A model generated the notes under the pieces. That model saw only the letters and a program-made list of their open reading frames with translations. It did no database searches and had not been told where the DNA came from. A DNA stretch of 55,134 bases. Origin: Candidatus Woesearchaeota archaeon CG1_02_57_44. Lineage in GTDB: Archaea > Nanobdellota > Nanobdellia > Woesearchaeales > CG1-02-57-44. Shown piece after piece: positions 21,209-52,806 of this stretch (its first letter is position 1; the number at the start of each line of letters is the position of its first letter). The position numbers and the translations under genes are program-made. The stretch is from contig MNWW01000006.1 in NCBI GenBank assembly GCA_001871415.1, forward strand, positions 1 through 55,134, read 5' to 3'.

Positions 21209-21226
21209 ACACACACACACACACAC
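21209..21226. repeat. (AC)9 dinucleotide microsatellite
   Basis: acacacacacacacacac read directly. Confidence 0.95.
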
Positions 21227-22250: not shown

Positions 22251-22793
22251 ATGAGTCACATGAAATACGTCCTTACTGACGCCGAAACTGGGTTGAATCC
22301 GACTGTGGATGAACTGGCCAGAACCATCATGGACCGCATTGGCCTTGAGCCCAGAAAACGAGGCTCGACCACCCTTATGTTCCAGACCCTGCTGGAACTG
22401 TATGAGCGCAGCAAGTCTGCCAACCGCGACAAGCACCCTGAAAACGCCATCGTCACGGTGGAGGAGATGGCAGCTCACGCAGGCATCAGCAGACAGACCA
22501 TGTATGAATATCTCCGACGCTGGCTCGCCCTGAGCCTCATCAGCAAGTCCAGCTATATTCTCGACGGCAAGGTCATCATCGGCTATCGACTCAACGGCGC
22601 GACGTTGGAGAGCGCGTTCGACAAAGCAGCGCAGCGCATCAACAACAACCTGGACACGACCATGCGCTATGTGCGCGAGCTGCAGCGCATCATCAAGAAC
22701 GAAAAAATAAGAAAAGCACAGAGCCCGATCCATGATTTTCGCGAAAGCAACACTGAAAACAACAATCCAGATAGTAGAACAACTGAGCAATAA
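22251..22793 (+). CDS. Winged-helix/HTH DNA-binding protein, family unknown
   Basis: HTH-like VTVEEMAAHAGISRQTMYEYLRRW followed by a beta-hairpin-like KVIIGYRLNG. A/T box AAAAATAGATAAA about 26 nt upstream of the ATG. Sits in a lower-GC, ORF-poor islet. Confidence 0.5.
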   Translation: MSHMKYVLTDAETGLNPTVDELARTIMDRIGLEPRKRGSTTLMFQTLLELYERSKSANRDKHPENAIVTVEEMAAHAGISRQTMYEYLRRWLALSLISKSSYILDGKVIIGYRLNGATLESAFDKAAQRINNNLDTTMRYVRELQRIIKNEKIRKAQSPIHDFRESNTENNNPDSRTTEQ

Positions 22794-23120
22794 GTCTAAT
22801 AAATAATCATTATTTTTAATTGTTTAGTGCATTATGTGTCGGAACCATATCATAATTCGCTAAAACCTCAGAATAGTGTCGGTATAATATCTCACCACCC
22901 CTTTTTGTCGCTGCCCAATAAGTTACACGAATCCAGAAGCTGCTGCAAGCATCAAAACTCAGGGAGTTAGTTGGTTGCACGAGTCTGCCAACAACATGCC
23001 AGGAAAGCATTGGACATTCTTAGCAAAAAACGCCACAAATTTTGTAAAAAGTGAGCCGCACCCGTTAATTGACCAATGCAGACAGCGCCATGCCAGCCCA
23101 GAGCCCACGAAGATACCAAA

Positions 23121-23221: not shown

Positions 23222-23725
23222 TCAATCACCCGTGACATGCGCCTTTAAGGCCTTATCGAGACCGAGCAGGTTCTGCTTTGCCTGCAGAGAACGGAATCGT
23301 TCAGAAAGCCCATACACCGCAGGATCAGATCCTTGCGCCAACACCGGGGGGTCGTCCCTACACATGAGCGCACCCAGATAATTGGCCACAATACTCCTTG
23401 ATAAGGTCGCGCGCTGAGAAATCTCCCGTAAAGTGAGGGGCCTATCTGCCGCATACAGGACAGAAAGAATCTCCCGCTCCTTCTCCGCCAGCTCAGGAAC
23501 CTCCGTATGTCGCTGCTCCATGCGCTCTATGCGCTCGAGCAGCTTGTCAAGCTTAGCCTCAAGAATACACTGGTACTCGTAGATGGACTGCAGCTCATCG
23601 GCGTTGGCATTGATCGATTCCAAATGGTCGTCGAGCTCCTCTTTCATCTTGCCAAAAGAACCCTTCACACCTGCGCGCATCGCCTCGAGTTCACGTCGCG
23701 TGGAAAACGGGAGCATATTGGCCAT
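23222..23725 (-). CDS. Coiled-coil plus C-terminal winged-helix protein (putative transcription regulator)
   Basis: Start trimmed to ATG 23725 (MANMLPF), because the longer ORF would run through the divergent methylase gene and its promoter. C-terminal wHTH REILSVLYAADRPLTLREISQRATLSRSIVANYL. Confidence 0.5.
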   Translation of the reverse strand: MANMLPFSTRRELEAMRAGVKGSFGKMKEELDDHLESINANADELQSIYEYQCILEAKLDKLLERIERMEQRHTEVPELAEKEREILSVLYAADRPLTLREISQRATLSRSIVANYLGALMCRDDPPVLAQGSDPAVYGLSERFRSLQAKQNLLGLDKALKAHVTGD

Positions 23726-23778
23726 AACCCACATGAAAGGCAGCGGTATTATATTTTTTTCCAACATTCCCATAGCAT

Positions 23779-24429
23779 ATGGGCACACCAAGCAAGGGCG
23801 AGCTCGCCAAGATGCTGTCAGGATTGAGAGGATTTGCCACCCCAAAAGAGCGCTTGGAACAATATCCCACGGACGGAGACACCGCAGCACTGCTACTTCA
23901 TCACGCGCAAAGCCATGGCGACTTGCCGGGCAGCGTCGCTGACCTTGGCTGTGGTACCGGCATCCTTGGCATCGGCGCCCTGCTTTTGGGAGCATCCCAC
24001 ATATTGTTCGTGGATATCGATGATGCAGCGCTCGCCATTGCGCGAGACAATCTTGCCAGGGCAGGCCTGCGAGAGGAAAAAGCCACCTTCCTGAAGACTG
24101 ATTTGCTCGCAATCAAACAGCAACCAGCAGTACACGAATCACCCATGACCTCTTTGAAAGCTGACTGCGCCATCATGAACCCCCCCTTTGGCAGCCGCCA
24201 CAAGGGAGCGGACATCGCATTTGCGCAGCTGGGCCTTCGCGTCGCACCTGTCATCTGGAGCATCCATCCGGGACAGACACGAGCAATGCTTGAGGCGAAA
24301 TCTGCCAGGTGGGGCGCACGGCTGACGCATTGCATCAGCCACAGCATGCATATCCCCAGCATGTATGATCATCACCGACGAGCAAGCAAACCTGTCGCAG
24401 TCATCATAGCACGGATGCAACGCAACTGA
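23779..24429 (+). CDS. METTL5-like (COG2263) SAM-dependent N6-adenine RNA methyltransferase
   Basis: LEQYPT, motif I DLGCGTGILGIG, motif IV MNPPFG. Colinear by eye with METTL5. Confidence 0.8.
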   Translation: MGTPSKGELAKMLSGLRGFATPKERLEQYPTDGDTAALLLHHAQSHGDLPGSVADLGCGTGILGIGALLLGASHILFVDIDDAALAIARDNLARAGLREEKATFLKTDLLAIKQQPAVHESPMTSLKADCAIMNPPFGSRHKGADIAFAQLGLRVAPVIWSIHPGQTRAMLEAKSARWGARLTHCISHSMHIPSMYDHHRRASKPVAVIIARMQRN

Positions 24430-27115: not shown

Positions 27116-29398
27116 ATGGGCAGCCAGCACGCATCCCTGCAGGCGTTCTACGCCAGCCTCGCTGAGCGTCAGGCAGCGACGCGAAAACTTCTTGGCAGAC
27201 CACTCACGCTGACAGAAAAAATCGTCTATGCTCATCTCGCTGGCGCTTCTCATGAAGCCCAAGAATACAAGCGCGGCAGTAATTATGTGGAACTCAACCC
27301 CGACCGCGTCGCCATGCAGGACGCGACAGCCCAGATGGCCGTGCTGCAATTCATGACCGCGGGAAAAAGCAAGAGCGCTGTTCCCGCCAGCATCCATTGT
27401 GATCATCTCATCCAGGCGCGACAAGGGGCGGACAATGATCTGGCTGCAGCAGAACTGGAAAACAACGAGGTCTACGCGTTCCTTCGCAGCGCTGCCCGCA
27501 GATATGGCATGGACTTCTGGAAGCCTGGCGCGGGAATCATCCATCAAGTGGTACTGGAGAACTTCGCGTTCCCTGGCGGCCTGCTCATCGGCACGGACAG
27601 CCATACGCCAAACGCCGGCGGCCTTGGCATGCTGGCTATCGGTGTCGGCGGCGCTGACGCTGTGGACGCCATGGCAGGATTGCCCTGGGAAGTGCAGATG
27701 CCAACAGTCTACGGCATTGTGCTCAAAGGCAGCCTGCGTGGATGGGCCAGCCCGAAGGACATCATATTGAAGCTCGCGGGCATGATCAGCGTCAAAGGCG
27801 GCACGGGCGCGGTGCTCGAGTATATTGGTGGTGATTTGTCCTGCACGGGCAAAGCAACGGTCTGCAACATGGGCGCTGAAGTAGGCGCGACCTGCTCGGT
27901 GTTTGGCTATGACACAGCCATGGCCGATTACCTTCACGCGACGGGCAGAGGCGAGCTCGCCGCGCTCTGCGACGCGAACAAGGAATCGCTGCAGGCAGAC
28001 CCTGAGGTGCTGGCAGATCCTTCTCGCTATTATGATAAGGTCATCACCATCAACCTGGACACGCTGCAGCCGTACCTGAACGGACCGTTCACGCCGGACC
28101 GGGCAACGCCTGCCGCTGATATGCACCGGGTCGCGCAACAGGAAGGATGGCCAACACGCATCAGCGCGTGCCTCATCGGCTCATGTACCAACAGCAGCTA
28201 TGAGGACATCGAGCGCTGCGCCAGCATCGCGAAAGCAGCCATCGCCCAAGGCCTGCGCGCGAGCGTACCCTTCTATGTCACACCTGGCAGCGAGACCATA
28301 CGCCAGACCATAGAGCGCGACGGGCAGCTCGCGATTCTTAAGGATTTTGGCGCAACGGTCCTCGCCAATGCCTGCGGACCGTGCATAGGCATGTGGAAAA
28401 GAGAGGTCAAAGAGAAGAACACCATCGTCACAAGCTTCAATCGCAACTTCGCCAAGCGCAATGATGGCAGTGCCCTCACGCATGCGTTCGTCGCGAGCCC
28501 TGAACTGGTAACGGCCCTCGCTATCACGGGCGAGCTTGGATTCAACCCCTTGACGGACAGGATCAATGGCGCGTTGCTCTCGGCCCCGATCGGCGATGCG
28601 CTTCCTGCCAAAGGATTCTCCGGAGCGCAGATGGTCGAGCAGACGCATGAGCCAGACACGCCCGTCATCGTCTCGGCCAACAGCAAACGCCTCGCGCTGC
28701 TCGAGCCGTTTCCGACAGGGGATGACAAGGACCTACACCTGCGCCTGCTCATGAAGACAGCAGGCAAGTGCACCACGGACCATATCAGCATGGCAGGCCC
28801 CTGGCTGGCGCTTCGAGGTCATCTTGACAAGATATCCGAGAATATGTTCCTTGGCGCGACCAATGCCATCACGGGAGAGACGGGAAAGGTGAGCATCGGC
28901 AACAGCGCATCGCTTCCGGTCACGCCTGCGCGGGCGGCACGCGAGCTGCAGAAAGCAGGCATATCGTGGTTCATTGCTGCTGAAGAGAACTACGGCGAAG
29001 GCAGCAGCCGGGAACATGCGGCCATGGAGCCACGACACCTTGGCTGCAGGGCCATTGTCTGCAAGAGCTTCGCGCGCATCCATGAGACCAATCTCAAGAA
29101 GCAGGGAGTCTTGCCCTTGACGTTTGTCGAGCCAAAGGATTACGACCTGCTCGCGCATGGCGATGAGCTGCTCATCCCTGCAACAGCGATTGCTGTGGGC
29201 AAGGACGTCCGGGCGACACTCACGCATACCGATGGAAGCACTGATCCGCTTACGCTGCGCCACACACTCAATGAGCAGCAACTACGCTGGTTCATCGCGG
29301 GCTCAGCGCTCAATGTCATCAGGCAAAGAACAGAAGAGAACAACAAGCCTGCGGAGAACAAAGACCTGATTATAGATGACCCCTCCCTTGAGACCTAG
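27116..29398 (+). CDS. acn: Aconitate hydratase (about 760 aa, mitochondrial-type)
   Basis: RPLTLTEKIVYAHL, IHCDHLI, GTDSHTPNAGGLG, LIGSCTNSSYED, ANACGPCIG and the swivel-domain NYGEGSSREHAA. TATA about 26 nt upstream of the ATG. Confidence 0.9.
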   Translation: MGSQHASLQAFYASLAERQAATRKLLGRPLTLTEKIVYAHLAGASHEAQEYKRGSNYVELNPDRVAMQDATAQMAVLQFMTAGKSKSAVPASIHCDHLIQARQGADNDLAAAELENNEVYAFLRSAARRYGMDFWKPGAGIIHQVVLENFAFPGGLLIGTDSHTPNAGGLGMLAIGVGGADAVDAMAGLPWEVQMPTVYGIVLKGSLRGWASPKDIILKLAGMISVKGGTGAVLEYIGGDLSCTGKATVCNMGAEVGATCSVFGYDTAMADYLHATGRGELAALCDANKESLQADPEVLADPSRYYDKVITINLDTLQPYLNGPFTPDRATPAADMHRVAQQEGWPTRISACLIGSCTNSSYEDIERCASIAKAAIAQGLRASVPFYVTPGSETIRQTIERDGQLAILKDFGATVLANACGPCIGMWKREVKEKNTIVTSFNRNFAKRNDGSALTHAFVASPELVTALAITGELGFNPLTDRINGALLSAPIGDALPAKGFSGAQMVEQTHEPDTPVIVSANSKRLALLEPFPTGDDKDLHLRLLMKTAGKCTTDHISMAGPWLALRGHLDKISENMFLGATNAITGETGKVSIGNSASLPVTPARAARELQKAGISWFIAAEENYGEGSSREHAAMEPRHLGCRAIVCKSFARIHETNLKKQGVLPLTFVEPKDYDLLAHGDELLIPATAIAVGKDVRATLTHTDGSTDPLTLRHTLNEQQLRWFIAGSALNVIRQRTEENNKPAENKDLIIDDPSLET

Positions 29399-29443
29399 GC
29401 CATAACAAGAATACAACGAGGGAGAAAACAACGAGGGAACAAC

Positions 29444-30685
29444 ATGCGCATCACCTTTGACGAACAGGGACTACACGTGCCAGAGCATCCGGACATCGCG
29501 CTCATCGCCGGCGATGGCATCGGCCCGGATGTCAGTTCCACGGGTTGCGCAGTGATAGACGCGGCAGTCAAGCAGGCCTATGGCGGAACACGTGCCATTG
29601 CCTGGGTGCCTGTGCTTGCGGGTGAAGCAGCATTCGCGAAGACGGGCGAATGGTTACCCAAGAAAAGCCTGGATTTGCTGCGCGCGTGCCGCGTCGGCAT
29701 CAAAGGGCCGTTGACCACCCCTATCGGCGGTGGCATCCGGAGCCTGAACGTGACCATCCGGCAGGAACTTGATTTATACGCCTGCGTGCGGCCGGTCAAG
29801 TGGTATTCTGGCATTCCTGCGCCGGTCAAGGAGCCAGAGAAGCTGGACGTCGTCATCTTCCGCGAGAATACCGAGGATGTCTATGCAGGCATCGAATGGA
29901 AAGCAGGAAGCAAGGAGGCGGACAAGGTCATCACCCTGCTCAACAGTATTAGCACAGGCACGAGCCATCCGCTGCTCTCCGGACAGACCGGCATCGGCAT
30001 CAAACCCATCAGCGAGGAGGCGACGAAGAGAATCGTGCGCGCGGCGATCAGCTATGCGCTGCAGCAGGGGCGGCGCAAAGTCACCATCGTCCACAAAGGC
30101 AACATCATGAAATTCACCGAAGGTGCGTTCCGGGATTGGGCATATGAGGTCGCGGCGGAATTCCCGCAGGTCGTAATCGAAGGAAAGCAGGGAGCAGCTG
30201 AAGGGTCGTCTACAGACAGGAGAGGAAAACCTGCTCAACCGCTGCTCGTCAATGACCGCATCGCGGACGCCATGTTCCAGCAGCTGCTCCTGCGCCCTGA
30301 TGAGTATGATGTCATCGTGACCAGCAACCTGAACGGCGACTATCTCTCGGACGCGTGCGCCGCGCAGGTCGGAGGGCTGGGAGTAGCGCCAGGCGCGAAC
30401 ATCAATTACGAGCGAGGACTTGCTGTGTTTGAGGCGACGCATGGGACAGCGCCAAAGTACGCTGATCTGGACAAGGTCAATCCTGGCTCCTTCATCTTAT
30501 CCGGCGTCATGATGCTCGAGCATCTGGGTTGGCAGGAGGCCGCGGAATTGATTGTGCACGGATTGACACGCGCCATCGCGAACAAGAATGTCACCTATGA
30601 CCTCGCGCGGCAGATGGACGGCGCGACAGAAGTCTCCTGCTCAGGATTTGGCAGGGAGATAATCCGGCTGATGGGAAGCAGGTAG
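29444..30685 (+). CDS. icd: NADP-dependent isocitrate dehydrogenase (prokaryotic homodimeric type)
   Basis: [62 protein letters not shown]. The 45-nt spacer after acn carries GAGGG SD-like repeats. Confidence 0.9.
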
Positions 30686-40779: not shown

Positions 40780-41844
40780 ATGGAACCCAGGCAGGTCCTC
40801 GCGCTGCTGCGCCAGCATGGCCGCAACACCATCAGCTTCCAGACCCTCATGCCGGGCCTCCGCTATTTTCAGTCACATGAATCAGGCTACATCGCCTACG
40901 TCCATGACAAGCACGTCTGGCTCGCGGTGGGCGATCCTGTCTGCGCACCGCAAGACCGCATGCTCCTCGCGCATCATTTCAGGAAGGCGGCGCACGTGGC
41001 CAAGGCAGATTGCTGCTTCCTGCACACGTCCCAAGAGATGCGCGACATCTTCGACCTCATGGCCTTTGGCACCATCAAGATAGGTGAAGAAGGCATCATC
41101 AATGTTCCGGAGTTCTCCACGTCAGGCAACCGCATGGATGATGTACGTTATGGATGCAATCATGCGGCCAAATCAGGCGTGTCTGTCAAACAAGTAGGTG
41201 ATGAAGCAGACCTGCTCGCGGGCATCACTGCATTGACCAGGCAATGGAGCAAGATGCATAAGGTCAATCACTTCAGCTTCCTTTTAAGCATGAATCCGCT
41301 CCTGTACGCAGAGGAGAAACGCATCTTCGTCGCGCTCCATGATAGCAAGGTCGTCGGATATCTCACCGGCGTTCCTATCTACCAGCGCAATGGCCTGTAT
41401 TTCGAGGACATCATCGTGAGCAAGGACGCGCCCAATGGCACAGGCAAACTACTGGTCGTCAATGCCATCGAGGCATTGCAGCAGCAAGGAGTAGCCATCG
41501 CAACGCTCGGCGCGAGCCCTCTGGCCAACATCACACCCGACGACAACCAGGATTATCCTCTGGCCAACAAGGCCCTCGCATTGCTGCGCGAGCATGGCAA
41601 CACGTTCTACAACTACAAGAGCCTCACGTACTTCAAGCAATCCTTCCAGCCCCACTCCTATGAGCCCCACTACTTCTGCTTCTATCCGCCACGGCTCAAG
41701 CGACGCATGATACAGGCGGTCATCAAGGCTTACAGCCCTGGCGGCATACCTCGGCTGGTGCTCAGCAGAATCAGCAAGGAGCTGAGGGCGCTGCGGCTGC
41801 GGACTCAGCGCGCCAAAGGACCACGTATCGCGCGCAGCAAATAA
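40780..41844 (+). CDS. Stand-alone DUF2156 / LPG_synthase_C domain protein (MprF C-terminal-like, aminoacyl-tRNA-dependent transferase fold)
   Basis: 354 aa with no TM segments. Blocks FSFLLSMNPL, YFEDIIVSKDAPNGTG and NTFYNYKSLTYFKQSFQPHSYEPHYFCF resemble the catalytic domain of aminoacyl-phosphatidylglycerol synthases. Confidence 0.65.
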   Translation: MEPRQVLALLRQHGRNTISFQTLMPGLRYFQSHESGYIAYVHDKHVWLAVGDPVCAPQDRMLLAHHFRKAAHVAKADCCFLHTSQEMRDIFDLMAFGTIKIGEEGIINVPEFSTSGNRMDDVRYGCNHAAKSGVSVKQVGDEADLLAGITALTRQWSKMHKVNHFSFLLSMNPLLYAEEKRIFVALHDSKVVGYLTGVPIYQRNGLYFEDIIVSKDAPNGTGKLLVVNAIEALQQQGVAIATLGASPLANITPDDNQDYPLANKALALLREHGNTFYNYKSLTYFKQSFQPHSYEPHYFCFYPPRLKRRMIQAVIKAYSPGGIPRLVLSRISKELRALRLRTQRAKGPRIARSK

Positions 41845-42569
41845 GGCAACCCTATCACCATCATCAGTATGCTCGCCCACTGACCCATCTGCAGCCCCAA
41901 CAGCCATGTGGGGTCGTCTCGCCAATAATCCGTTATGAGGCGAAACAGACCGTAGAGGAAGAAGAACAGCCAGAAGGTGACGCCCGGCTTGTCAAAACGA
42001 TAGCGCTTCCAGACCGGAAGGATGATGAGGTAGAGCAGGAAGAGGATGGCCGCCTGATACAACTGGTAGGGATGCCTGCACCCCGCATAGCCAGGAAAGA
42101 TGACGCACCAGGGCACGTTCGCCACTTTTCCCACGAGCTCGGCATTGATGAAGTTCGCGACGCGACCAAGGCTCAATGACAGGGCGGTAGCGATCAGCAC
42201 GACTTCACTGGCATGATAGATATTGATGCGGTATTTTCTACTGTAGATGATGGCAACCAACATGGCACCTATGAACGCGCCATGAAACGACATGCCCCCG
42301 TGCCAGATGTAGAAAAGCTCCCATGGATGCAGGAACTGCGCCGGCTGGTTGAACAGGAAATAACCGATCCTTCCACCCGCGATGATGCCGACGACGAGCC
42401 AGGAATACCCCCACTCGATGGACTCGCGCGTCATGTTGGGCATCTTCGCGCGTATCGCGAGCCAGTACGCGTACAGGAACCCGAACAGGTAGACAAGCCC
42501 GTACCAGCGGATGGCGAGCGGGCCTATCTGGAGCGCGATGGGATTGAACGTGTGAATGTAGGGCATCAT
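41805..42569 (-). CDS. lgt: Prolipoprotein (phosphatidylglycerol) diacylglyceryl transferase homologue
   Basis: GPLAIRWYGL, GGRIGYFLFN, WHGGMSFHGAFIG, GRVANFINAELVG, HPYQLYQA. The 3' end overlaps the convergent DUF2156 gene by 40 nt. Start MMPYIH is 26 nt downstream of a T/A box. Confidence 0.8.
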   Translation of the reverse strand: MMPYIHTFNPIALQIGPLAIRWYGLVYLFGFLYAYWLAIRAKMPNMTRESIEWGYSWLVVGIIAGGRIGYFLFNQPAQFLHPWELFYIWHGGMSFHGAFIGAMLVAIIYSRKYRINIYHASEVVLIATALSLSLGRVANFINAELVGKVANVPWCVIFPGYAGCRHPYQLYQAAILFLLYLIILPVWKRYRFDKPGVTFWLFFFLYGLFRLITDYWRDDPTWLLGLQMGQWASILMMVIGLPYLLRAIRGPLAR

Positions 42570-42818
42570 AGAAGGGGGAGCCCGGGGGAATAAAAAGGTT
42601 TGGTTATAATCCATAGCTCGGACCGGACATCCACAAGTCTTATTTAGCGAACTTCAATCGGTTTGCTGATGGAAGCGCTCCCGTTCAGCGGCCAGTCAGC
42701 CCACATATTACCAGAAGGACGCGGGCGTCGTAGGAATGGCCGAGCAACCGGTTCGTCCAGGAATCCTGGGCGCAATGGACGCGAAAGCGTATTAAAGTTC
42801 GGGTGATTATCGTTGACC

Positions 42819-43368: not shown

Positions 43369-43557
43369 CTACTTCATCTCAGTATAGCCACACTTACCGC
43401 AGGACATGCGGTTGCTGTGCGTGGCCATGAAGATTGCAGGCCCGCACTTCGGGCAGGAGCGCGGCTTGGTCACCTTGCCGCCTTCCACTTTGTAGACCTT
43501 ATACGCAGAGTAGGATGATTTCTTCTTCTTTGGAGCAGCTTTCTTGTCTTGTGCCAT
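43369..43557 (-). CDS. rps27ae: 30S ribosomal protein eS31 (S27ae)
   Basis: C4 zinc ribbon CPKCG...CGKCGY. Conserved position after eS24. Confidence 0.85.
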   Translation of the reverse strand: MAQDKKAAPKKKKSSYSAYKVYKVEGGKVTKPRSCPKCGPAIFMATHSNRMSCGKCGYTEMK

Positions 43558-43562
43558 GGCAA

Positions 43563-44009
43563 TCACTCGTTCTTGGACTCAGTTTCTGGTTTGGCCTCGT
43601 CGGCCTTCTTTGCTTCAGGAGCAGGCTTCGCTTCAGGAGCGGGTTTGCTGTCAGCTTTCTTTTCTTCAGCAGGTTTCTGGTCAGCTGCTTTCTCTTCCTT
43701 GGATTCAGCAGGCTTTTTCTCGGACTTCGCGTCCTCGAGCGCTATACCATTGCGCTTGAGCATATGCATAGGCTCCGCGATTCGCATTGCCTTCAGGTCA
43801 GGATATGCGCGACCCTGTACCGCAAGGTACGGCTGACCGTATTGCTTCTCGATGCTGATCACGAGCACATGCTTTTCCTTGGACTCTTTTATCAGATGCT
43901 CGCGCACGTCCTTTCGCTTTGGAAAAACACCAGTAAACGAGAGTATCGCCTTTATGTCCTTTCGGCCATACAGAGCATTATCCTTAACATCAATAGATTG
44001 CGTATTCAT
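43563..44009 (-). CDS. rps24e: 30S ribosomal protein eS24 with a K/E/A/P-rich C-terminal extension of about 48 aa
   Basis: N-terminal 100 aa fit S24e (NALYGRKDIKAILSF...PKRKDVREHL...AYPDLKAM). Tail KKPAESKEEKAADQKPAEEKKADSKPAPEAKPAPEAKKADEAKPETESKNE. Confidence 0.8.
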   Translation of the reverse strand: MNTQSIDVKDNALYGRKDIKAILSFTGVFPKRKDVREHLIKESKEKHVLVISIEKQYGQPYLAVQGRAYPDLKAMRIAEPMHMLKRNGIALEDAKSEKKPAESKEEKAADQKPAEEKKADSKPAPEAKPAPEAKKADEAKPETESKNE

Positions 44010-44011
44010 GT

Positions 44012-44194
44012 CTAGCGCACCTTTATCGCATATTCGCCCCTCTTCTCAAATCCCATCTCCTTGGCGATGCGGGACTTGTCAGGATCGACGACAAACACGC
44101 GACCCTGCCAATTGGAGCTGTACTCAGAAGTATTAGTATCGACCTTCTCCTTGTCGACAAACATCTTGGTTTTCTTGTTGACGAATCGTGCCAT
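44012..44194 (-). CDS. spt4: Transcription elongation factor Spt4 (RpoE'') homologue lacking all four zinc-ligand cysteines
   Basis: 60 aa. The C-terminal NGN-binding half WQGRVFVVDPDKSRIAKEMGFEKRGEYAIKV is typical of Spt4. Conserved position between rpo7 and rps24e. No Cys in the whole protein. Confidence 0.7.
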   Translation of the reverse strand: MARFVNKKTKMFVDKEKVDTNTSEYSSNWQGRVFVVDPDKSRIAKEMGFEKRGEYAIKVR

Positions 44195-44203
44195 GGTGAG
44201 ACC

Positions 44204-44755
44204 TTACTTTTCTTTTTCCTTCTGCCCTTCTTCCTCAACCCAGTCCAGGCGGCCCAGGCCAGGCTGACGCATGGTAAGACCAAACTTCGGGTTGGTGATA
44301 TCCTTGTAGGAGATCGCGATAATCCTTGCCATGCACTGATCGCCCACTTTCAGGGACTTCTTGGATTCCTTGCCGCTGAGAACCTTTTCCTTGGCAAAAC
44401 TGACATAGTCATCCATGGTCTGACTGATGTGGATCATACCATCAATAGGACCAATGGTCATGAACGCGCCAAAGTCAGCGATATCACGGATGGTGCCAAA
44501 GACCAACTCTTTCATCTCTGGCTTGAAGGAAACAACATCAAAGGTAGTCTCATAGTAAGCCGCCCCATCGCCTGGGATGATGATACCCTGACCGATGTCG
44601 CCGACAGCTAAAACGTCAATAACAATACCCAGTTCCTCGGAAATCAGCCCCTCAAACTTCCTCTTGAGCTCCTTGAGGATGGCCTCAGATAAATCGTACT
44701 TGAACATATCTGGAGGCACCCGAACATGCTCTTTCAGCTGGATTTTGTAGAACAT
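44204..44755 (-). CDS. rpoE: DNA-directed RNA polymerase subunit Rpo7 (E')
   Basis: MFYKIQLKEHVRVPPDMF N-terminal domain plus a C-terminal S1 fold (VFGTIRDIADFGAFMTIGPIDGMIHISQ). Confidence 0.9.
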   Translation of the reverse strand: MFYKIQLKEHVRVPPDMFKYDLSEAILKELKRKFEGLISEELGIVIDVLAVGDIGQGIIIPGDGAAYYETTFDVVSFKPEMKELVFGTIRDIADFGAFMTIGPIDGMIHISQTMDDYVSFAKEKVLSGKESKKSLKVGDQCMARIIAISYKDITNPKFGLTMRQPGLGRLDWVEEEGQKEKEK

Positions 44756-44851
44756 TGATAGTCTGGAAATGGCAGTCCCTTTAAAAGGTTTGCGGAGATG
44801 TGGTTCACGAGTGAGAATCGTCCCTGACCCCTTATATGGACCATTCAGTCG

Positions 44852-45247
44852 CTACAGGACTTCCAGAACCTGTTTCTTGCGCATGCAGACAGTCTTAATG
44901 CCCCTTGCCCGCGCGCGCCTGCGGAGCTCAGCGTCAGCGCTAGCGAGCAGCATGCTCCCGGAGCTGTCCGCTCCTTGCTCAGCTGCGACCTCGATAAGCG
45001 CGTCATCGACTCGTAGATTGGAACCTGCTTTGAGCAGCACCAGGCCTTTCGCTTTTGCCAGCTGCAGACCGAGCTTCGCGTTCTTGGCCTCACGGCTGTT
45101 GCCGGTCGCAAGGCCTTCCAGCTCCCGGATGCACGCGTCAAGCGTCACCTTCTCGCAAGGACCCAGCAGCTTGTCAAGCTGAGTGAAGATATCAAGGTTC
45201 ATACGACCAGGCAACATGAGGAAACTGGTGTCGATGAGCACGCGCAT
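44852..45247 (-). CDS. PIN-domain protein of the Fcf1/Utp24-like (COG1412) type
   Basis: MRVLIDTSFLM...DDALIEVA...LLASADAELRRRA acidic-residue pattern. Conserved archaeal linkage upstream of rpo7-spt4-rps24e-rps27ae. Confidence 0.7.
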   Translation of the reverse strand: MRVLIDTSFLMLPGRMNLDIFTQLDKLLGPCEKVTLDACIRELEGLATGNSREAKNAKLGLQLAKAKGLVLLKAGSNLRVDDALIEVAAEQGADSSGSMLLASADAELRRRARARGIKTVCMRKKQVLEVL

Positions 45248-45302
45248 AAGGGAATAGAAAGCGCGACGGGTTTAATTAGTTTGCCCGGACAAGCAAAAGG
45301 GC

Positions 45303-45908
45303 TCAGAAAATATCAGCAACCGAACCTTCCAGATATTGGGCAAGCCGTCCTAAAGCGCGATTCCTTGCACGTATCACGCTTCTATCGTTCATGCCATGAT
45401 TATGCACCATATCCACAAGCCTCGCGACTTCCTGGTTTGAATATCCATCAAGAACACTCGCCAGCACAATGGTCTGCTCTATCTCCGGCAGGTAGCCAAG
45501 CGCCTTCTGTATTGGCTCATGCACCTGCCCATCCAACCACTCGGTTTCAGCGCTACAGGAACCACACAGCAAATCCTGCAAACCTGCGGCCCCACCCTCT
45601 GATGAATCAAGCGAAACAACCTGAGCAGCATTCGCTCGTCTCCGGGCGCTCCTCTGCTCAGCCCATGCTATCTGATTGACACGCAGGGTGAGATATGTCT
45701 TGAACGTGGCATCCTTCCCAGGATCGTATTTCTCCAGAGCATCCATAAGCGCCCTATGCGCGATGTCCTCAGCGTCTGCGCATGGGTCAGCTATGTCCCA
45801 CCTGGCGGCACACGTCAAGGCGTATGGCATATACCGCATCATCAATGCATCAGCATACGGAGATTGCCAGTCTTCCCTGGCGCGTCTCACCAGTTCCGTT
45901 TCCGGCAT
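45303..45908 (-). CDS. Sigma-70 family, ECF-like sigma factor homologue (regions 2 and 4)
   Basis: Region 2: ADAEDIAHRALMDALEKYDPGKDATFKTYLTLRVNQIAWAEQRSARRR. Region 4 HTH: LPEIEQTIVLASVLDGYSNQEVARLV...NDRSVIRARNRALGRLAQYL. Alternative leaderless GTG start at 45938, 27 nt from an A/T box at 45961-45972. Confidence 0.7.
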   Translation of the reverse strand: MPETELVRRAREDWQSPYADALMMRYMPYALTCAARWDIADPCADAEDIAHRALMDALEKYDPGKDATFKTYLTLRVNQIAWAEQRSARRRANAAQVVSLDSSEGGAAGLQDLLCGSCSAETEWLDGQVHEPIQKALGYLPEIEQTIVLASVLDGYSNQEVARLVDMVHNHGMNDRSVIRARNRALGRLAQYLEGSVADIF

Positions 45909-46051
45909 CCCTGACCGTTCATCAATGGCAAAGACCACGAACACCGGATTTTGCCGTTGATATTTATATTTGCCTGCCCGCCATCGGCCCCGTGCGCAGG
46001 GTACAATCATCTTGCCATAATTATTTATACGCTGCCACACTGGCACCGTGC

Positions 46052-47383
46052 ATGGCGCAAGACCCCGCACTCTTGAAAATCCTCACTCGTGTCAAGCCCG
46101 ATGCGCAGGAGCAGACCCAGGTAAAGCAGGCAGTAATCCAAGCCAAGACCACACTCAAGTCGCTCCTGTCCAGACTAGATGCCAAACTCGTCCCCGGAGG
46201 CAGCATCGCCAAAGGCACGTGGCTCTCCGGCAACACTGACATCGACCTGTTTGTGCAGTTCCCTGCATCGTGGCGCGGCAGGGATATCGCGCAGGCGCTC
46301 GCAGGGGCTCTGGAGCAGGAACGTCAACACGGCGGCACACATAGCGCGGACAAGACGCTCCTGCGCGTGGAGCGCGTGCATGGCAGCCGCGATTATTTCC
46401 ATGTGCAGAAAGGCCGCAGGGTCATCGAGATCGTCCCGGTCCTGGCCATCGCTTCTGCCGCGCATGCGGAGAATGTCACGGACATCTCACCTCTGCACGT
46501 CGCATGGGTCAGATCCATGCTGACGCCGCGCATGCAGGACGAGGTGCGTCTCGCGAAGCAATTGTGCAAAGCGTCACGCACCTATGGCGCAGAATCCTAC
46601 ATACAAGGATTCTCCGGTTATGTGCTGGAGATACTCATCGCGCATCATAAGAGCCTTGCCGCCCTCGCAAAAGCGGCATCCGGCTGGAGCGAACGCACCT
46701 ATATCGATGTCGATGGACACTATGCTGACGAGCGCGCCGCGCGCAGAGCGCTGAACCGTGCTCGCATGGTATCGCCGCTGCTGCTCATCGACCCTGTGCA
46801 TCCTGAGCGAAACGCTGCCGCAGCGCTCAGCAAGCGTAACTACGCGCGCTTCAAGGAGCAGTGCCAGACGTTGACCCATGCGCTGGACAGGAGCGCCACG
46901 TCATCCCGCGCGCAGACCGATATCTCGCGATTGTTCCGGGAGCAGAAGAACAGCGTCGCCACACTCCGGAAGCGGGGCGGCTATCTCATCGCCTACGAGG
47001 CGACGCCACTTGAAGGAAAAGAAGATGTCATCGGCTGCAAGCTGCTCAAGGCGCAGGAGATCATCGGCGCAGAGATGAAGAATCATGGCTTTACGGTGCA
47101 GGATGCTGGCTGGGAATGGGACGGCAAAAGCAAAGCGCTGCTCTGGCATGTGCTCGAGAAACGCAAGATTCCTCTGACTTTTGTCAGGGTCGGACCTCCG
47201 GCTGCCAAGGAACCATACGCGTCTGCGTTCAGACACAAACATCCTGATGCCCGTATCGTCGACGGGAAACTGGAAGCGGATGTCAGGCGCGAATACACAG
47301 ACGCCAGCAAGCTGGCCAAGGCGCTCCTGACAGAAGAGCGCATAAGCGCACTGGTGAAGAAGATAGCGCTCATCGCGTCCTGA
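46052..47383 (+). CDS. cca: Archaeal class I CCA-adding enzyme (tRNA nucleotidyltransferase)
   Basis: GGSIAKGTWLSGNTDIDLFVQFP (GS...G-T-x-L-x4-DxD), then RLAKQLCKA. Start trimmed to MAQDPALL (46052), 26 nt downstream of TTATTTATAC. Confidence 0.85.
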   Translation: MAQDPALLKILTRVKPDAQEQTQVKQAVIQAKTTLKSLLSRLDAKLVPGGSIAKGTWLSGNTDIDLFVQFPASWRGRDIAQALAGALEQERQHGGTHSADKTLLRVERVHGSRDYFHVQKGRRVIEIVPVLAIASAAHAENVTDISPLHVAWVRSMLTPRMQDEVRLAKQLCKASRTYGAESYIQGFSGYVLEILIAHHKSLAALAKAASGWSERTYIDVDGHYADERAARRALNRARMVSPLLLIDPVHPERNAAAALSKRNYARFKEQCQTLTHALDRSATSSRAQTDISRLFREQKNSVATLRKRGGYLIAYEATPLEGKEDVIGCKLLKAQEIIGAEMKNHGFTVQDAGWEWDGKSKALLWHVLEKRKIPLTFVRVGPPAAKEPYASAFRHKHPDARIVDGKLEADVRREYTDASKLAKALLTEERISALVKKIALIAS

Positions 47384-48371: not shown

Positions 48372-49388
48372 ATGCCCGATTTGTTCCAATCTGTACCCCT
48401 TGTGGATTACAGTCGCATAGCATATACCGCCGACTTGCAGGACATCAGTTGGGTACCCACGGAAGGCGGCGATCTGGGAGCAGTGAGCGATTACTACAGG
48501 ACGTGCGCCACGGAACACAGAGAACCTGTCCTGTCCACAGCGAAAGCGCTTGCAGGCAATGACCTGACCCATCTGAGACAGACCACCCTGGCCAATGGCC
48601 TGGTTTTCCATACTGCCCATCGCGGCGATGGCCAACCCTGCTATAATGTCTGGGAATATCGAGGGATCCAGAGATCAAGTGGAAATCGCTGGCACAATGC
48701 TGATACCCCGGTCACTTATATCGATACACCGGATGAAAAACCAATAGTCATAACACCAACATGCATAACCGGAGTTGCGCTCCCGAACGGATTCATGTTG
48801 ACTGATGTAAGTGTAAGTAATGGATGCAACTTCGCCACGTGGGCCATAAGAAAATTTTCCGACGACGACTCTTCAACCATTGTCGGCTATCGTCTGAGCG
48901 CAAGCCCAAATGGAGAAAATGGTCTCACCTTCAGCTATCGCGTCAATACGACACACCCCGACGGCCCCTGCAAGTACACCCAGGTCGAGCTGACCGATAT
49001 GGACCCTACGTTGGTCTGCCGTGTGACCGAGGGCTATGATTCAAGCCTTCCCGCTTCACGCGCGTTCCTGCCCGACTCCAAAGAAGAAGCAGTCTTGACG
49101 TTCCTCGCCAACGGTGTCTTCGGAAGTGTGCATGGCGTAAGCCAAACAAACGCACGTAATCCTGACTGGACTGACGATACGCTCCAACGCCTGCTGAGGA
49201 GAGGCAGCAATGAGCAGTTCTCTTACACAGCAGATACCGCCGACGGAGCATTCCTGGCGAACGAAGTGTTCGGCATAGACGCGAGCAAGCATCCCCGGCT
49301 TAATGCCCAGGCCACCCTGACCACCCTCATGGACCTTGCCATCAGAGGAGAGCGCATGGACCTGAACAGGGACCTACAATTCCTGTAG
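48372..49388 (+). CDS. Hypothetical protein, no recognisable domain
   Basis: 338-aa ORF. TATA TTTAAATATA about 27 nt upstream. No signal peptide or TM. Somewhat lower GC by eye. Adjacent to MITE copy 2. Confidence 0.5.
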   Translation: MPDLFQSVPLVDYSRIAYTADLQDISWVPTEGGDLGAVSDYYRTCATEHREPVLSTAKALAGNDLTHLRQTTLANGLVFHTAHRGDGQPCYNVWEYRGIQRSSGNRWHNADTPVTYIDTPDEKPIVITPTCITGVALPNGFMLTDVSVSNGCNFATWAIRKFSDDDSSTIVGYRLSASPNGENGLTFSYRVNTTHPDGPCKYTQVELTDMDPTLVCRVTEGYDSSLPASRAFLPDSKEEAVLTFLANGVFGSVHGVSQTNARNPDWTDDTLQRLLRRGSNEQFSYTADTADGAFLANEVFGIDASKHPRLNAQATLTTLMDLAIRGERMDLNRDLQFL

Positions 49389-49458
49389 GATAAACAGCCT
49401 TGTTCGTTCTTGTTGACCACAACGCGATAAATATACCTAATGCTACTTAGTGCACCCA

Positions 49459-49621
49459 GGCTCTGTCCTAAGAGTCCAGCCAGCAGCAATTGCGAAGGCT
49501 GATGTGTTGGATTTTGCGCATTGACAGGGGGATGCCCCCTCCGGGGATGTCAATCCGTCACTGGTGAGAACACCGCCGAAGCCCGCTGCTGGCATAGTCA
49601 AACGAGATTCAGGACAGAGCC
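49459..49621. mobile_element. MITE-like element, copy 2 (inverted relative to copy 1)
   Basis: Same 11-bp termini. Flanked by the 9-bp direct repeat GTGCACCCA at 49450-49458 and 49622-49630. About 9 substitutions relative to copy 1. Confidence 0.85.
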
Positions 49622-49680
49622 GTGCACCCAGGAGACACCCAGTGGTTAGTTTTATATAGCCCTGCAGGTTGATGTCCTCT

Positions 49681-51099
49681 ATGCGCAACAAGCAGACCAA
49701 GGTCGTGGCGACTGTCTCAGACCAGCGCTGCGGCCCGGATTTCATCAAGCAGCTCCACGACAATGGCATGGATGTCGTGCGCCTGAACACCGCGCACCAG
49801 ACTCCTGAGACGTGTCTGCAAGTCATCAAGAACATCCGGGAAGCGTCTGACAAGATAGCCATCCTCATCGACACCAAAGGACCTGAAGTCAGGACGACCG
49901 CGGTCAATGCGCCCATTGAACTGAAACGGGGCCAGGACATCATCATCAGGGCATCAGAGAGCACGACCACGGCAGATGCCATCCATGTGAATTATTCCGG
50001 ATTCGTCAAGGACGTGCCTGACAGCAGCAGCATCCTCATGGACGATGGTGACCTGGAGCTAAAGGTCATCAGGAAGGCCAATGATGCCCTGCACTGCCGC
50101 GTCATGAACAAGGGCACACTCAAATCCCATAAGAGCGTCAATGTCCCTGGCATCCATCTTGATCTGCCATCGCTAACCAGACGCGACAAGGAGTTTTTGC
50201 AGCTTGCCATGGAGCAGGACATCGACTTCATCGCGCACAGCTTCGTGCGCAACGCCGACGACGTCAAGGCTATACAACAGTTCTGCAAGAAGAAACCCAT
50301 CAGGATCATCGCCAAGATAGAGAACACGCAAGGTGTGGAGAACCTTGATGAGATACTGGATTATTCCTATGGCGTCATGGTCGCACGAGGCGATCTTGGC
50401 GTCGAGATCCCCGCGGAGGAAGTGCCGCTCATCCAGAAGACCATCATCCGGCGCTGCATCCAGCGCGCGAAGCCGGTCATCACGGCGACGCAGATGCTGC
50501 AGAGCATGATAGAGAACCCACGGCCTACGCGCGCCGAGGTATCGGATGTCGCCAATGCCATCCTCGACGGAACAGACGCGCTCATGCTCAGCGCGGAGAC
50601 CGCGGCAGGCAAGTACCCTGTGGCAGCGGTGAGAATCATGGCGAAGGTCGCCAAACGCATCGAGTGCAGCAGGAACCTGGAGCACTTTGACCCCATCCAT
50701 GCGGAGTACAACCCGGTCAGCGAGTATATCGCCATGGCCGCGGTCGAGGCAGCGCAGGACCTGCTCGCGCAGGCAATCATCATCCCCACGCAGTCAGGCC
50801 TGTCAGCCAGAATGGTCTCTGCGTACCGAGGCAGGATACCTGTCTATGCGCAGTGCATGGACGAAGCTGTCATGCGCTCGCTCGCGCTCAGCCATGGCAT
50901 ACGTCCCAGCAAAATCCCGCCCGCCAGCACGACCGAAGAGATGGTGCGCAGCGCGCTCGCGCGGCTGGTCGAGGAAGGAAACCTGAAAGCGCATGACCGC
51001 GTCGTGGTCATGGCTGGGACGCCCGGCAAACCAGAAGGCAGCAACTTCATCGAGATAGATACGGTTAAGCATATCCTGGAAGACTATCGTAAGAAATAG
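49681..51099 (+). CDS. pyk: Pyruvate kinase
   Basis: TKVVATVSD, VVRLNTAH, IDTKGPEVRT, IAKIENTQGVENLDEI, MVARGDLGVEIP, MLSAETAAGKYP. ATG 49681 is 26-27 nt downstream of TTTTATATAG. Confidence 0.9.
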   Translation: MRNKQTKVVATVSDQRCGPDFIKQLHDNGMDVVRLNTAHQTPETCLQVIKNIREASDKIAILIDTKGPEVRTTAVNAPIELKRGQDIIIRASESTTTADAIHVNYSGFVKDVPDSSSILMDDGDLELKVIRKANDALHCRVMNKGTLKSHKSVNVPGIHLDLPSLTRRDKEFLQLAMEQDIDFIAHSFVRNADDVKAIQQFCKKKPIRIIAKIENTQGVENLDEILDYSYGVMVARGDLGVEIPAEEVPLIQKTIIRRCIQRAKPVITATQMLQSMIENPRPTRAEVSDVANAILDGTDALMLSAETAAGKYPVAAVRIMAKVAKRIECSRNLEHFDPIHAEYNPVSEYIAMAAVEAAQDLLAQAIIIPTQSGLSARMVSAYRGRIPVYAQCMDEAVMRSLALSHGIRPSKIPPASTTEEMVRSALARLVEEGNLKAHDRVVVMAGTPGKPEGSNFIEIDTVKHILEDYRKK

Positions 51100-51127
51100 G
51101 GATGCATTTGCCTGCATAGAGAAAAGC

Positions 51128-51135
51128 ATTTATAG
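51128..51135 (+). promoter_or_regulatory. TATA box upstream of the serA leader
   Basis: ATTTATAG matches the box type seen before acn, nrdR, trmB and cca. It is centred 27 nt upstream of ATG 51158. Confidence 0.45.
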
Positions 51136-51157
51136 TCCTGCCGCGCCCTTTGCTGCC

Positions 51158-51223
51158 ATGAGCGGAACATCGCATCCTATCGAGGTTTGTTTCTCCAGTC
51201 TCCGCCCTCTGTCGTCTTGTTAG
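51158..51223 (+). CDS. Candidate leaderless 21-codon Ser-rich upstream ORF (MSGTSHPIEVCFSSLRPLSSC)
   Basis: The ATG is at the position expected for a leaderless start. 6 of 21 codons are Ser, including two Ser-Ser pairs. The G of stop codon TAG is the first base of a 7-bp hairpin GGGGAGC/GCTCCCC (51223-51251). Confidence 0.3.
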   Translation: MSGTSHPIEVCFSSLRPLSSC

Positions 51224-51270
51224 GGGAGCAGTCGTCTCCGCAACGCTCCCCCAGCGCATAGGTGATGCCC

Positions 51271-52806
51271 ATGAAAGCACTAGTAGCAGAACCCATACAC
51301 AACGCCGCCATCCAGGCCCTCAAAGGACTTGGACTCTCAGTAGAAGTATCGCTGGGCCTGAGCCGCGACGCCCTTTGTTCTGCCCTGGGATCTGGTGCTA
51401 TCGACGTGCTCATCATCCGCACCAAGGTACAGGCGGACAGGGAATTGCTCAACTGCTGGAAGGGCACGCAACGGCTGCTCTGCCGCGCGGGCATCGGCGT
51501 CGATAACATCAACCTTGATGCGGCGACCGCGCTTGGCATCGCGGTCATCAACACGGCTGAGGCGAGCACCCAGAGCGTCGCGGAGCTGGCAATCGGGCTC
51601 ATGATCGCTGCTGCGCGCAATGTGGCCTCGCAGGACAGAGCCATCAGGATCGGGGCCTGGAAGCGTCAGGAAGGTATGGAGCTCTCGGGCAAGACGCTGG
51701 GCATCATCGGGCTTGGCAGGATAGGCTCGCGGGTGGCGATGCTCGGCAAGGCGCTGGGGATGCATGTTGTCGCGCACGACCCGTACATCAGGGATGATCG
51801 CTTCGCGGAATTCGGTGCAGAGAAATCGACGCTCGAGGACACATTGGGACGGGCCGATGTCGTATCGTTGCACACGCCGCTCACGCCAGAGACCGAACGC
51901 ATGATGAACAAGGCACGGCTGGGCATAATGAAGCAAGGCAGCATCCTGATCAACACGGCGCGCGGGCCCATGGTGGATGACGAAGCGCTCTGCGACGCGC
52001 TGGACTCGGGGCATCTCGCGGGAGCCGCGCTCGATGTGTTCCCCGAAGAGCCGTACAAAGGTCGGCTGCTCAGTAATGAGAGCGTCATCATGACGCCTCA
52101 TATCGGCGGCAGCACATCAGAGTCGCTCGAGCGCATCGGGATGCGCCTTGTCGAGCAGATAGCAGAATTCCTGCGCGCCGGACACACCAGCGCGCTGAAC
52201 GCACCCCTTGTGCCCACAGGTGCCGAAGACCTGGTGGTGCTCGCGCGCGCGCTTGGTAGACTGTGTGCGCAGCTTGATGGGCCTTTGCATCGCATCACCG
52301 TGCAGGCATCGGCGCATGGCAGGGTGCTGACGCACGCCGCAGTGCAGGGCGCACTTTCCGTGCATCAGGAAGGAATCAACCTGGTCAACGCATTGGCCCA
52401 GGCGCAGCAGCGCGGTATCAGCGTGCTGACCGGGCAGACAGAACCTGCTGACAAGCAACAACCGGGCGAGCTGCAGGTGATGGTCAATGAGACCCTAGCG
52501 GCCGGCAGCGTACAAGGAGGCATGCGGATAACCCGCATCGGCGAGCATACGCGCCTGGACTTCGCGCCGCAGGGCAGCATCCTGCTCCTCTGGTATGACG
52601 ATGTCCCTGGCGTCATCGGCGCGGTCGGAACGCACCTTGGCAAGGCGGACATCAACATCAAGCGCATGGTGGTCTCGGATGTCGCTGACGGCAACGCGCT
52701 GATGGCGCTCGCGGTCGGAGACGCGCTGGACGCTGAGGTGATGGAGGGCTTGCGGGAGCGGCTCAAGGAATTCGGACTCTCGCGACTGGCACAGGTGCGG
52801 CTGTGA
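51271..52806 (+). CDS. serA: D-3-phosphoglycerate dehydrogenase with a C-terminal ACT domain
   Basis: GIIGLGRIGSRVA, INTARG, LDVFPEEP, TPHIGGST, and an ACT-like tail. SD AGGTGAT at 51259-51265 precedes ATG 51271. Confidence 0.9.
   Translation: MKALVAEPIHNAAIQALKGLGLSVEVSLGLSRDALCSALGSGAIDVLIIRTKVQADRELLNCWKGTQRLLCRAGIGVDNINLDAATALGIAVINTAEASTQSVAELAIGLMIAAARNVASQDRAIRIGAWKRQEGMELSGKTLGIIGLGRIGSRVAMLGKALGMHVVAHDPYIRDDRFAEFGAEKSTLEDTLGRADVVSLHTPLTPETERMMNKARLGIMKQGSILINTARGPMVDDEALCDALDSGHLAGAALDVFPEEPYKGRLLSNESVIMTPHIGGSTSESLERIGMRLVEQIAEFLRAGHTSALNAPLVPTGAEDLVVLARALGRLCAQLDGPLHRITVQASAHGRVLTHAAVQGALSVHQEGINLVNALAQAQQRGISVLTGQTEPADKQQPGELQVMVNETLAAGSVQGGMRITRIGEHTRLDFAPQGSILLLWYDDVPGVIGAVGTHLGKADINIKRMVVSDVADGNALMALAVGDALDAEVMEGLRERLKEFGLSRLAQVRL

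Follow-up and report, generated by a model that had tools for sequence, protein, structure and literature searches.

The stretch of DNA analyzed here (hereafter, the window) is positions 1 to 55,134 of contig MNWW01000006.1 (GenBank assembly GCA_001871415.1), which derives from Candidatus Woesearchaeota archaeon CG1_02_57_44. The subject of this study is an open reading frame (ORF) on the minus strand of the window that is a genuine, intact gene of the sigma-70 family (Table 1); it is called the sigma gene below, and its product the sigma protein. Two Pfam domains were detected in this product in the correct order, and both gathering scores were passed narrowly. They were PF04542 (Sigma70_r2; 25.2 bits v. 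a gathering score of 24.0, E = 1.4e-5, profile positions 2–70 of 71) and, C-terminal to it, PF08281 (Sigma70_r4_2; 28.5 bits v. 25.7, E = 1.2e-6, profile positions 2–51 of 54). In the 211-residue form of the protein, these domains occupy residues 33–100 and 141–196, respectively. The NCBIfam model TIGR02937 (sigma70-ECF, where ECF denotes extracytoplasmic function) was aligned at near full length (residues 30–201 of the same form to model positions 4–163 of 165), and its score of 40.9 bits was 2 bits under the cutoff of 42.9. The phage sigma family PHROG 1740 also matched, with an E value of 1.3e-10. An earlier note on this DNA had called the gene a sigma-70 homologue and had proposed a comparison with these Pfam and NCBIfam profiles; the identification was borne out, well beyond chance, by the two Pfam domains, by PHROG 1740 and by the fold matches given below, with TIGR02937 as a near-miss. 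The two peptide strings quoted in that note were both found in the translated ORF. Membership in the sigma-70 family, taken together with a native archaeal context, is regarded as close to certain.

Three start codons have to be considered. Sigma-like homology begins at the ATG of the 201-residue form (“ELVRRA...”), and the numbering of that form is used from here on. The form given in NCBI starts at an upstream GTG (Table 1), and a 235-residue gene call from ATG 46010 was encountered in other assemblies. The last of these is an unlikely start, as translation from it would traverse an A/T box. Neither a sigma1.1 nor a sigma3 domain was found in the sigma protein; its layout is sigma2, a flexible linker and sigma4.

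A structural model of the sigma protein was built with AlphaFold2 from an alignment with 21 distant relatives, and its mean pLDDT (predicted local distance difference test) value was 86.4. The modelled helices spanned residues 3–12, 17–38, 46–60 and 69–99 in sigma2 and residues 120–138, 142–153, 158–169 and 175–200 in sigma4; they were separated by a linker of ca. 20–30 residues with low pLDDT. When the model was compared with the PDB using Foldseek, all 50 matches listed were sigma factors with a probability of 1.0 or 0.99. The top matches included SigD, SigB and SigH of Bacillus subtilis, sigmaE, sigmaS, WhiG, FliA, sigmaH of Mycobacterium tuberculosis and SigW. Among the BFVD matches, those that were named were almost all phage sigma factors (E values of 3e-6 and upwards), again with a probability of 1.0 or 0.99. 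A CxxC motif (CGSC, C115–C118) was observed in the linker, two further cysteines (C33 and C43) in sigma2, and the triplet HNH in an insertion in sigma4 described below. It is pure speculation that a metal or redox site might be built from these residues and take the place of an anti-sigma factor.

Table 1. Coordinates of the sigma gene, its domains and candidate signals, and the adjoining genes (positions in the window; residues of the 201-residue form).
Feature	Position	Strand	Remarks
Sigma-70-family ORF (sigma gene)	45303..45908	minus	stop 45303-45305; ATG 45908, 201 aa
Alternative start of the sigma ORF	GTG 45938	minus	211 aa; form in NCBI
Sigma2 domain (Sigma70_r2)	45639..45842	minus	residues 23-90; Pfam
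Region 2.2 helix	45729..45773	minus	residues 46-60; alignment with 21 relatives
Sigma2-sigma4 linker	45549..45608	minus	residues ~101-120; pLDDT 54-55, residues 115-117 <50
Sigma4 domain (Sigma70_r4_2)	45351..45518	minus	residues 131-186; Pfam
6-aa insertion DMVHNH in the sigma4 helix-turn-helix turn	45396..45413	minus	residues 166-171; in 0 of 21 aligned relatives
A/T box ATATTTATATTT	45960..45971	ambiguous	centre ~28 nt upstream of GTG 45938, ~58 nt upstream of ATG 45908
A/T box of the CCA gene	46017..46029	plus	~27 nt upstream of CCA ATG 46052; divergent promoter
T-rich tract TTTTGCTT	45291..45298	minus	4 nt past the sigma stop; candidate archaeal oligo-T terminator
ACTAATTAAA box	45271..45280	minus	~30 nt upstream of PIN ATG 45247
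Archaeal cluster downstream of the sigma gene	43369..45247	minus	PIN_9 to S27ae; Pfam
PIN_9	44852-45247	minus	Pfam
Rpo7/RpoE (SHS2 + S1)	44204-44755	minus	Pfam
Spt4	44012-44194	minus	Pfam
S24e	43563-44009	minus	Pfam
S27ae	43369-43566	minus	Pfam
Archaeal class-I CCA-adding enzyme	46052..47383	plus	divergent from the sigma gene; 443-aa calls in independent contigs

The residues of the sigma protein were compared with those of working sigma factors in an alignment with 21 relatives. Contact with the beta-prime clamp helices of the bacterial polymerase is made by the region 2.2 helix, which carries the Gln of the D-L-x-Q-E motif. At this position, 16 of the 21 relatives have Gln, and the sigma protein has His51. 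The core-binding motif is D-[LIV]-x-Q-[ED] in a full-length helix; the sigma protein reads D-I-A-H-R, and three residues (about one helical turn) that are present in 20 of the 21 relatives are deleted after residue 53. As judged from these residues, the polymerase-docking helix is degenerate, which is consistent with a loss of docking on the bacterial core. Tyr72 occupies the position of the ECF-typical Trp (13 of 21 relatives); Tyr is the state found in groups 1–3. In sigma4, the helix-turn-helix (HTH) contains the insertion DMVHNH, whose length is six residues rather than the eight given in the earlier note. The insertion was accommodated in the model, with high pLDDT, by a lengthened second helix and a longer loop. 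The recognition helix retains the S-V-x-x-R...R-A...R-L pattern, in which R184, A185, R188 and L189 are conserved.

The sigma protein had also been labelled “ECF-type”, and this label held in part. The two-domain architecture without sigma3 agrees with it; TIGR02937, the subgroup models, the neighboring genes and the promoter searches do not. All ECF subgroup models scored 13–29 bits on the sigma protein v. cutoffs of 126–350, and thus missed by more than 100 bits. ECF-type promoters (GAAC, 15–18 nt, CGTC) occurred seven times in the window v. 5.4 expected, with none near the sigma gene, and no sigma-70-type promoter was found within 44700–46300. No anti-sigma gene adjoins the sigma gene, as the earlier note had stated: the flanking genes encode PIN_9 and the CCA enzyme and lie 55 nt and 113–143 nt away, too close for one to fit in between. 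The best PDB sequence matches of the sigma protein were WhiG and FliA, and its region 2.2–2.3 (LMDALEKYDPGKDATFKTY) resembles that of group 3 (FliA/WhiG) at least as well as that of ECF factors.

With the ECF factors (group 4, e.g. Escherichia coli sigmaE, PDB 1OR7, M. tuberculosis sigmaH and B. subtilis SigW), which were among the top fold matches, the sigma protein shares the sigma2-linker-sigma4 layout, a length of ca. 200 residues, the DAED motif and the conserved recognition helix of sigma4. It differs from them by Tyr72 for Trp, by His51 for Gln, by the three-residue deletion in region 2.2 and by the six-residue insertion in the HTH; further, TIGR02937 falls just under its cutoff, the gene has neither an anti-sigma neighbor nor an ECF-type promoter, and it lies in a window of archaeal genes in which no gene for a bacterial core RNA polymerase (RNAP) was seen. 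The group 3 (sigma28-type) factors FliA and WhiG have the region 2.2–2.3 motif GLIDAIEKFDxxxxxxFxTYA, to which LMDALEKYDPGKDATFKTY fits, but the sigma protein lacks sigma3, and TIGR02479 was aligned only over residues 54–87, with 28.7 bits v. a cutoff of 189.6. Phage sigma factors (PHROG 1740 and 351; BFVD) are likewise small, highly divergent sigma2 + sigma4 proteins and match about as well as the cellular ones do, whereas the context of the sigma gene is not viral: housekeeping genes adjoin it on both sides, and other phage genes are absent. In the PhyR-type proteins of Alphaproteobacteria, the sigma2-sigma4 fold has been put to another regulatory use, without polymerase or promoter function. 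PhyR is thus a precedent for a co-opted sigma fold; the sigma protein lacks the receiver domain of PhyR and its anti-sigma sequestration.

The integrity of the assembly was assessed using other sequence records. The 90%-identity cluster of the sigma protein led to the 235-residue gene call; 11 contigs carrying this call were read, and six places were compared. These came from six sample or assembly records, namely ENA ERZ909571 (SRR1534154, groundwater), Logan SRR5036883 and SRR6240790, ENA ERZ27293412 and ERZ27293413, and JGI 3300025833. In all six, the order CCA - sigma - PIN - Rpo7 was arranged as in the window, and the nucleotide identity to the window was 99.94–100% over 3–20 kb; the six contigs represent a single population and thus lend no evolutionary depth. 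A single-nucleotide polymorphism (SNP) was present in the sigma gene among them (45750 G>T, L090, third codon position, synonymous), and one SNP carries no statistical power. The bacterial character of the gene family and a GC content at third codon positions (GC3) atypical of the window would suit an assembly chimera or a fragment of bacterial contaminant within an archaeal contig. This explanation was refuted by the CCA-sigma-PIN junctions repeated in the six records, and its probability is negligible: because independent assemblies repeat both junctions, mis-assembly is ruled out. The sigma gene also spans only 0.6 kb and has archaeal genes within 55 nt and ca. 140 nt. The view of the earlier note that the contig is not obviously a bacterial contaminant was in this way upheld across six sample or assembly records.

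The surroundings of the sigma gene are archaeal. Its position between the PIN-rpo7-spt4 genes and the CCA-enzyme gene, also described in the earlier note, was confirmed by Pfam assignments of the neighbors. An inositol monophosphatase gene comes next after that of the CCA enzyme, and further archaeal genes in the window encode L1, L10/P0, PAC2 and KaiC. No bacterial RNAP subunit was seen among the genes of the 55-kb window, in which archaeal Rpo7 and Spt4 are present. The best 80 genomic matches to Rpo7 had identities of 61–70% and came nearly all from Woesearchaeota, Nanoarchaeota/Nanoarchaeia or generic archaeal metagenome-assembled genomes; the host is therefore a Woesearchaeales-like DPANN archaeon without a close sequenced relative among species representatives. 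The PIN-Rpo7-Spt4-(S24e)-S27ae cluster was conserved across these 80 Woesearchaeal loci, and 30 of the 80 matched the layout of the window in having a divergent CCA gene upstream, at most 10 kb from Rpo7. The slot between CCA and PIN was variable. In the loci examined, it held a gene for a Na+/H+-antiporter-like membrane protein of ca. 390 residues, in some cases accompanied by an endonuclease-IV-like gene, or was empty (loci L067 and L069). When all ORFs of the 80 rpo7 loci were searched with phmmer and with a hidden Markov model made from alignment A1, no sigma-like ORF was found (0 of 80). The adjacency of the sigma gene to rpo7 and spt4 carries no functional weight, since it is shared by none of the relatives.

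The sigma protein itself is an orphan. A word-indexed search of 5.8 billion proteins returned nothing beyond the sigma protein itself. When 1.84 billion representatives were searched exhaustively with phmmer, 40 matches were obtained at E <= 1e-3; no relative above about 30–35% identity was among those representatives, and the best genuine sigma match was a sigma factor of 188 residues (E = 2.5e-6, 29% identity). The two top matches of this search (P0002 and P0003) were giant repeat proteins and were discarded as artefacts. Five contigs that carry distant relatives were examined: one had a bacterial ECF gene followed by a downstream zf-HC2 anti-sigma gene, one was phage-like and consisted of small ORFs, one held a bacterial-looking operon, and two were short and uninformative. 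None of the five was archaeal. The relative on the phage-like contig has the same gap in region 2.2 as the sigma protein. The donor lineage of the sigma gene cannot be named, and a phylogeny at 25–35% identity would not resolve one.

The base composition of the gene was compared with that of the remainder of the window. The statement in the earlier note that the gene has the same GC level as its neighbors held for total GC (0.538) and failed for GC3. The latter, 0.521, was the lowest of any ORF in the window (mean 0.68, standard deviation (sd) 0.06) and thus ca. 2.6 sd below the mean. An index resembling the codon adaptation index (CAI) was built from the other 19 tabulated genes of the window, and the sigma gene scored lowest of the 20. 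No terminal inverted repeats and no target-site duplication were found flanking the sigma gene. The orphan sequence, the absence from the 80 related loci and the lowest GC3 and codon index together suggest that the sigma gene was acquired horizontally, is specific to its lineage and has not been fully ameliorated.

Candidate expression signals are present on both sides of the gene. Runs of at least 9 nt of A/T numbered only 28 in the 55 kb, and the 113 bp that separate the divergent CCA and sigma genes contain two of these. The one nearer the sigma gene (Table 1) is a candidate archaeal TATA element of that gene, and the other belongs to the CCA gene. A spacing of ca. 27–28 nt is typical of the archaeal TATA boxes of leaderless mRNAs; were the ATG of the 201-residue form the true start, the sigma mRNA would have a leader of ca. 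30 nt. The two boxes are part of an imperfect direct repeat of 21 nt with 76% identity (45948–45968, ATTTTGCCGTTGATATTTATA, and 46009–46029, ATCTTGCCATAATTATTTATA), and a promoter segment may have been duplicated when the sigma gene was inserted. A T-rich tract follows the sigma stop codon, and a further box precedes the PIN gene. The latter points to a separate promoter for the PIN-rpo7 operon, in which case the sigma gene would be monocistronic. The earlier note had claimed that the gene is monocistronic and has an archaeal-type A/T box to itself. This is plausible in light of the PIN box and the T-tract; the sigma-side box lies as far from the gene as an archaeal TATA element would, and its orientation is uncertain.

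Sigma-70 genes have been reported from DPANN archaea before (family fam00359), where they are “particularly prevalent in Woesearchaeota” (Castelle et al. 2021, Front Microbiol, PMC8204110). In that study, mis-binning was ruled out, no anti-sigma factors were found, and the mechanism was called unclear. The novelty implied by the earlier note was accordingly overstated, as DPANN sigma-70 genes without anti-sigma factors had been published in 2021. The present case likewise involves a Woesearchaeota-like genome, co-encoded archaeal genes and no anti-sigma gene. As likened to fam00359 by description and not by sequences, the sigma protein is at best a very divergent, single-lineage member, because no relative exceeded ca. 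35% identity and none of the 80 rpo7 loci held a sigma-like ORF. The sigma gene is an instance of the published phenomenon and, on present evidence, extends it by one case without establishing a new principle.

The best overall explanation, to which a probability of about 0.5 is assigned, is that a sigma gene was acquired into a variable slot and that its product is now a DNA-binding regulator. The gene would occupy the slot between the CCA gene and the PIN-rpo7-spt4-S24e-S27ae operon as its own transcription unit. The protein is probably not a specificity subunit of a polymerase, because the transcription genes of the window are all archaeal and because archaea, to our knowledge, have no bacterial-type core polymerase. 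It would instead serve as an ordinary sequence-specific DNA-binding regulator of promoters that depend on TBP and TFB, and DNA would be contacted through the HTH of sigma4, in which the basic residues of the recognition helix are kept. This mode of action is shared by most archaeal regulators, which are HTH proteins of bacterial type. Taken singly, the regulatory role is put forward tentatively, at somewhat less than even odds, and several points weigh against it. The case for the DNA binding and expression of the protein is drawn from its sequence; free full-length sigma factors are usually poor DNA binders, and the insertion within the turn of the HTH could impair binding. The orientation of the sigma-side A/T box is uncertain because the box is a direct repeat of that of the CCA gene. 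Purifying selection on the sigma gene is unmeasurable, as the gene is an orphan and its lone SNP is synonymous. Finally, the low GC3 and the low CAI-like score would fit a recent, unselected passenger equally well. In that event, the gene would be functionless, recently derived from an unsampled bacterium or phage, near-neutral and decaying. The orphan sequence confined to one population agrees with such a passenger, as do the absence of the gene from the 80 related loci, the varying content of the slot among relatives, the extremes of GC3 and codon usage, the deviations at both functional cores (the helix of region 2.2 and the turn of the HTH), the phage sigma families that match about as well as cellular ones and the relative with the region 2.2 gap on a phage-like contig. 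It is the main rival explanation and is considered somewhat less likely than the regulatory role. An uninterrupted frame of 201 codons encodes the two domains, both of them full-length and confidently folded, and an archaeal-style A/T box and a T-tract at the right distances would not be expected from a fresh bacterial transfer. DPANN genomes are streamlined and shed useless genes fast. The recurrence of sigma-70 genes in Woesearchaeota also argues that genes of this class have some selective value (PMC8204110).

Other roles for the sigma protein, in which a polymerase would be contacted, were weighed against the same observations. It is improbable that sigma2 docks on the clamp coiled-coil of archaeal Rpo1 (the site of TFE and Spt5) and there aids promoter recognition or DNA opening. 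No more probable is a hybrid system that combines such docking with the TBP/TFB polymerase, promoter selectivity or signal sensing being supplied by sigma4 or by the Cys-containing linker. The coiled-coil is conserved from bacterial beta-prime to archaeal Rpo1, and the altered region 2.2 helix could be an adaptation to a different clamp surface; the lost Gln and helical turn are more simply understood as a loss of core binding. The location of the sigma gene beside rpo7 and spt4 would also suit a clamp binder, but that adjacency is not conserved in relatives, and a factor that is essential or important should have orthologues in related genomes. TFE-beta is missing from DPANN archaea (review, PMC7289017), which would leave room for a substitute. 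Still less probable, to the point of being nearly discounted, is that the sigma protein is an effector which the archaeon delivers into bacteria (a partner or a host) and which redirects their RNAP as a phage sigma factor does. The protein shares its fold with bacterial and phage sigma factors, and DPANN archaea are thought to be symbionts (PMC8204110). Set against this are a core-binding helix that is degenerate, the lack of a signal peptide or hydrophobic N-terminus in the sigma sequence and the lack of secretion genes adjoining the sigma gene; moreover, the hosts of known DPANN episymbionts are, according to the same article, other archaea.

Several other features of the window were recorded. 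Beside the ribosomal and RNAP cluster lie bacterial-type lipid or lipoprotein genes, namely that of the prolipoprotein diacylglyceryl transferase Lgt (41805–42614, minus strand) and one whose product carries an LPG_synthase_C domain (40780–41844, plus strand). A bacterial-style block at 5583–11961 comprises histidine kinases (5583–7073 and 8209–9063) and a MoxR AAA+/DUF58/VWA-BatA cluster (9024–11961). Aconitase, isocitrate dehydrogenase, pyruvate kinase and phosphoglycerate dehydrogenase are encoded at 27116–30685 and 49669–52806, and the central metabolism in the window is richer than in the usual description of Woesearchaeota-like DPANN genomes. Two huge predicted surface proteins (1491 and 905 residues) with Big_9/PKD-like Ig domains are encoded at 12372–19528; the smaller has tandem Cys-rich repeats (GDETGVDCGGSC...) that correspond to a 128-nt direct repeat at 17556–17830. 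An island of low GC (0.43–0.47 v. ca. 0.56 elsewhere) with many A/T runs and small HTH genes was located at 21000–23000 and 23222–24112. Within it, the ORF at 22251–22793 has weak HTH matches. The ORF at 23222–24112 was considered as a second sigma gene and rejected: its match to Sigma70_r4 was sub-threshold, an IclR-type HTH matched equally well, and it is taken as a generic HTH protein.

Repeated elements were also noted. An element of 163 nt is present in two copies (71–233 and 49459–49621) that are 95% identical and inverted with respect to one another; it has its own terminal inverted repeats (GGCTCTGTCCT...AGGACAGAGCC) and looks like a miniature inverted-repeat transposable element. The second copy overlaps an unannotated ORF of 179 codons (49443–49982, minus strand) without a Pfam match. 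Directly downstream of a tRNA-Ser(GGA) gene (3961–4044), three GC-rich, internally palindromic 56-nt repeats were found at 4084–4330; they are 88–100% identical, are spaced at 95–96 nt and have no Rfam match. They were rejected as a typical CRISPR array, the unit being too long and the copies too few. The tRNA was the sole match in the Rfam scan of the window. The PADLOC defence systems gave no match for the sigma protein, for its PIN neighbor or for the two uncharacterised ORFs at 48372–49982.

Sigma factors on one side and TBP and TFB on the other are the textbook markers of bacterial and archaeal transcription initiation, respectively. An intact, promoter-equipped sigma gene in a streamlined archaeon thus raises the question of whether a sigma fold can be useful without a bacterial polymerase, the candidate uses being regulation by plain DNA binding or, with far lower probability, partnership with the archaeal polymerase. 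For this question, the locus is a clean test case: its junctions have been validated, its flanks are unambiguously archaeal, and the specific changes at the docking helix and at the DNA-binding turn can be probed biochemically.

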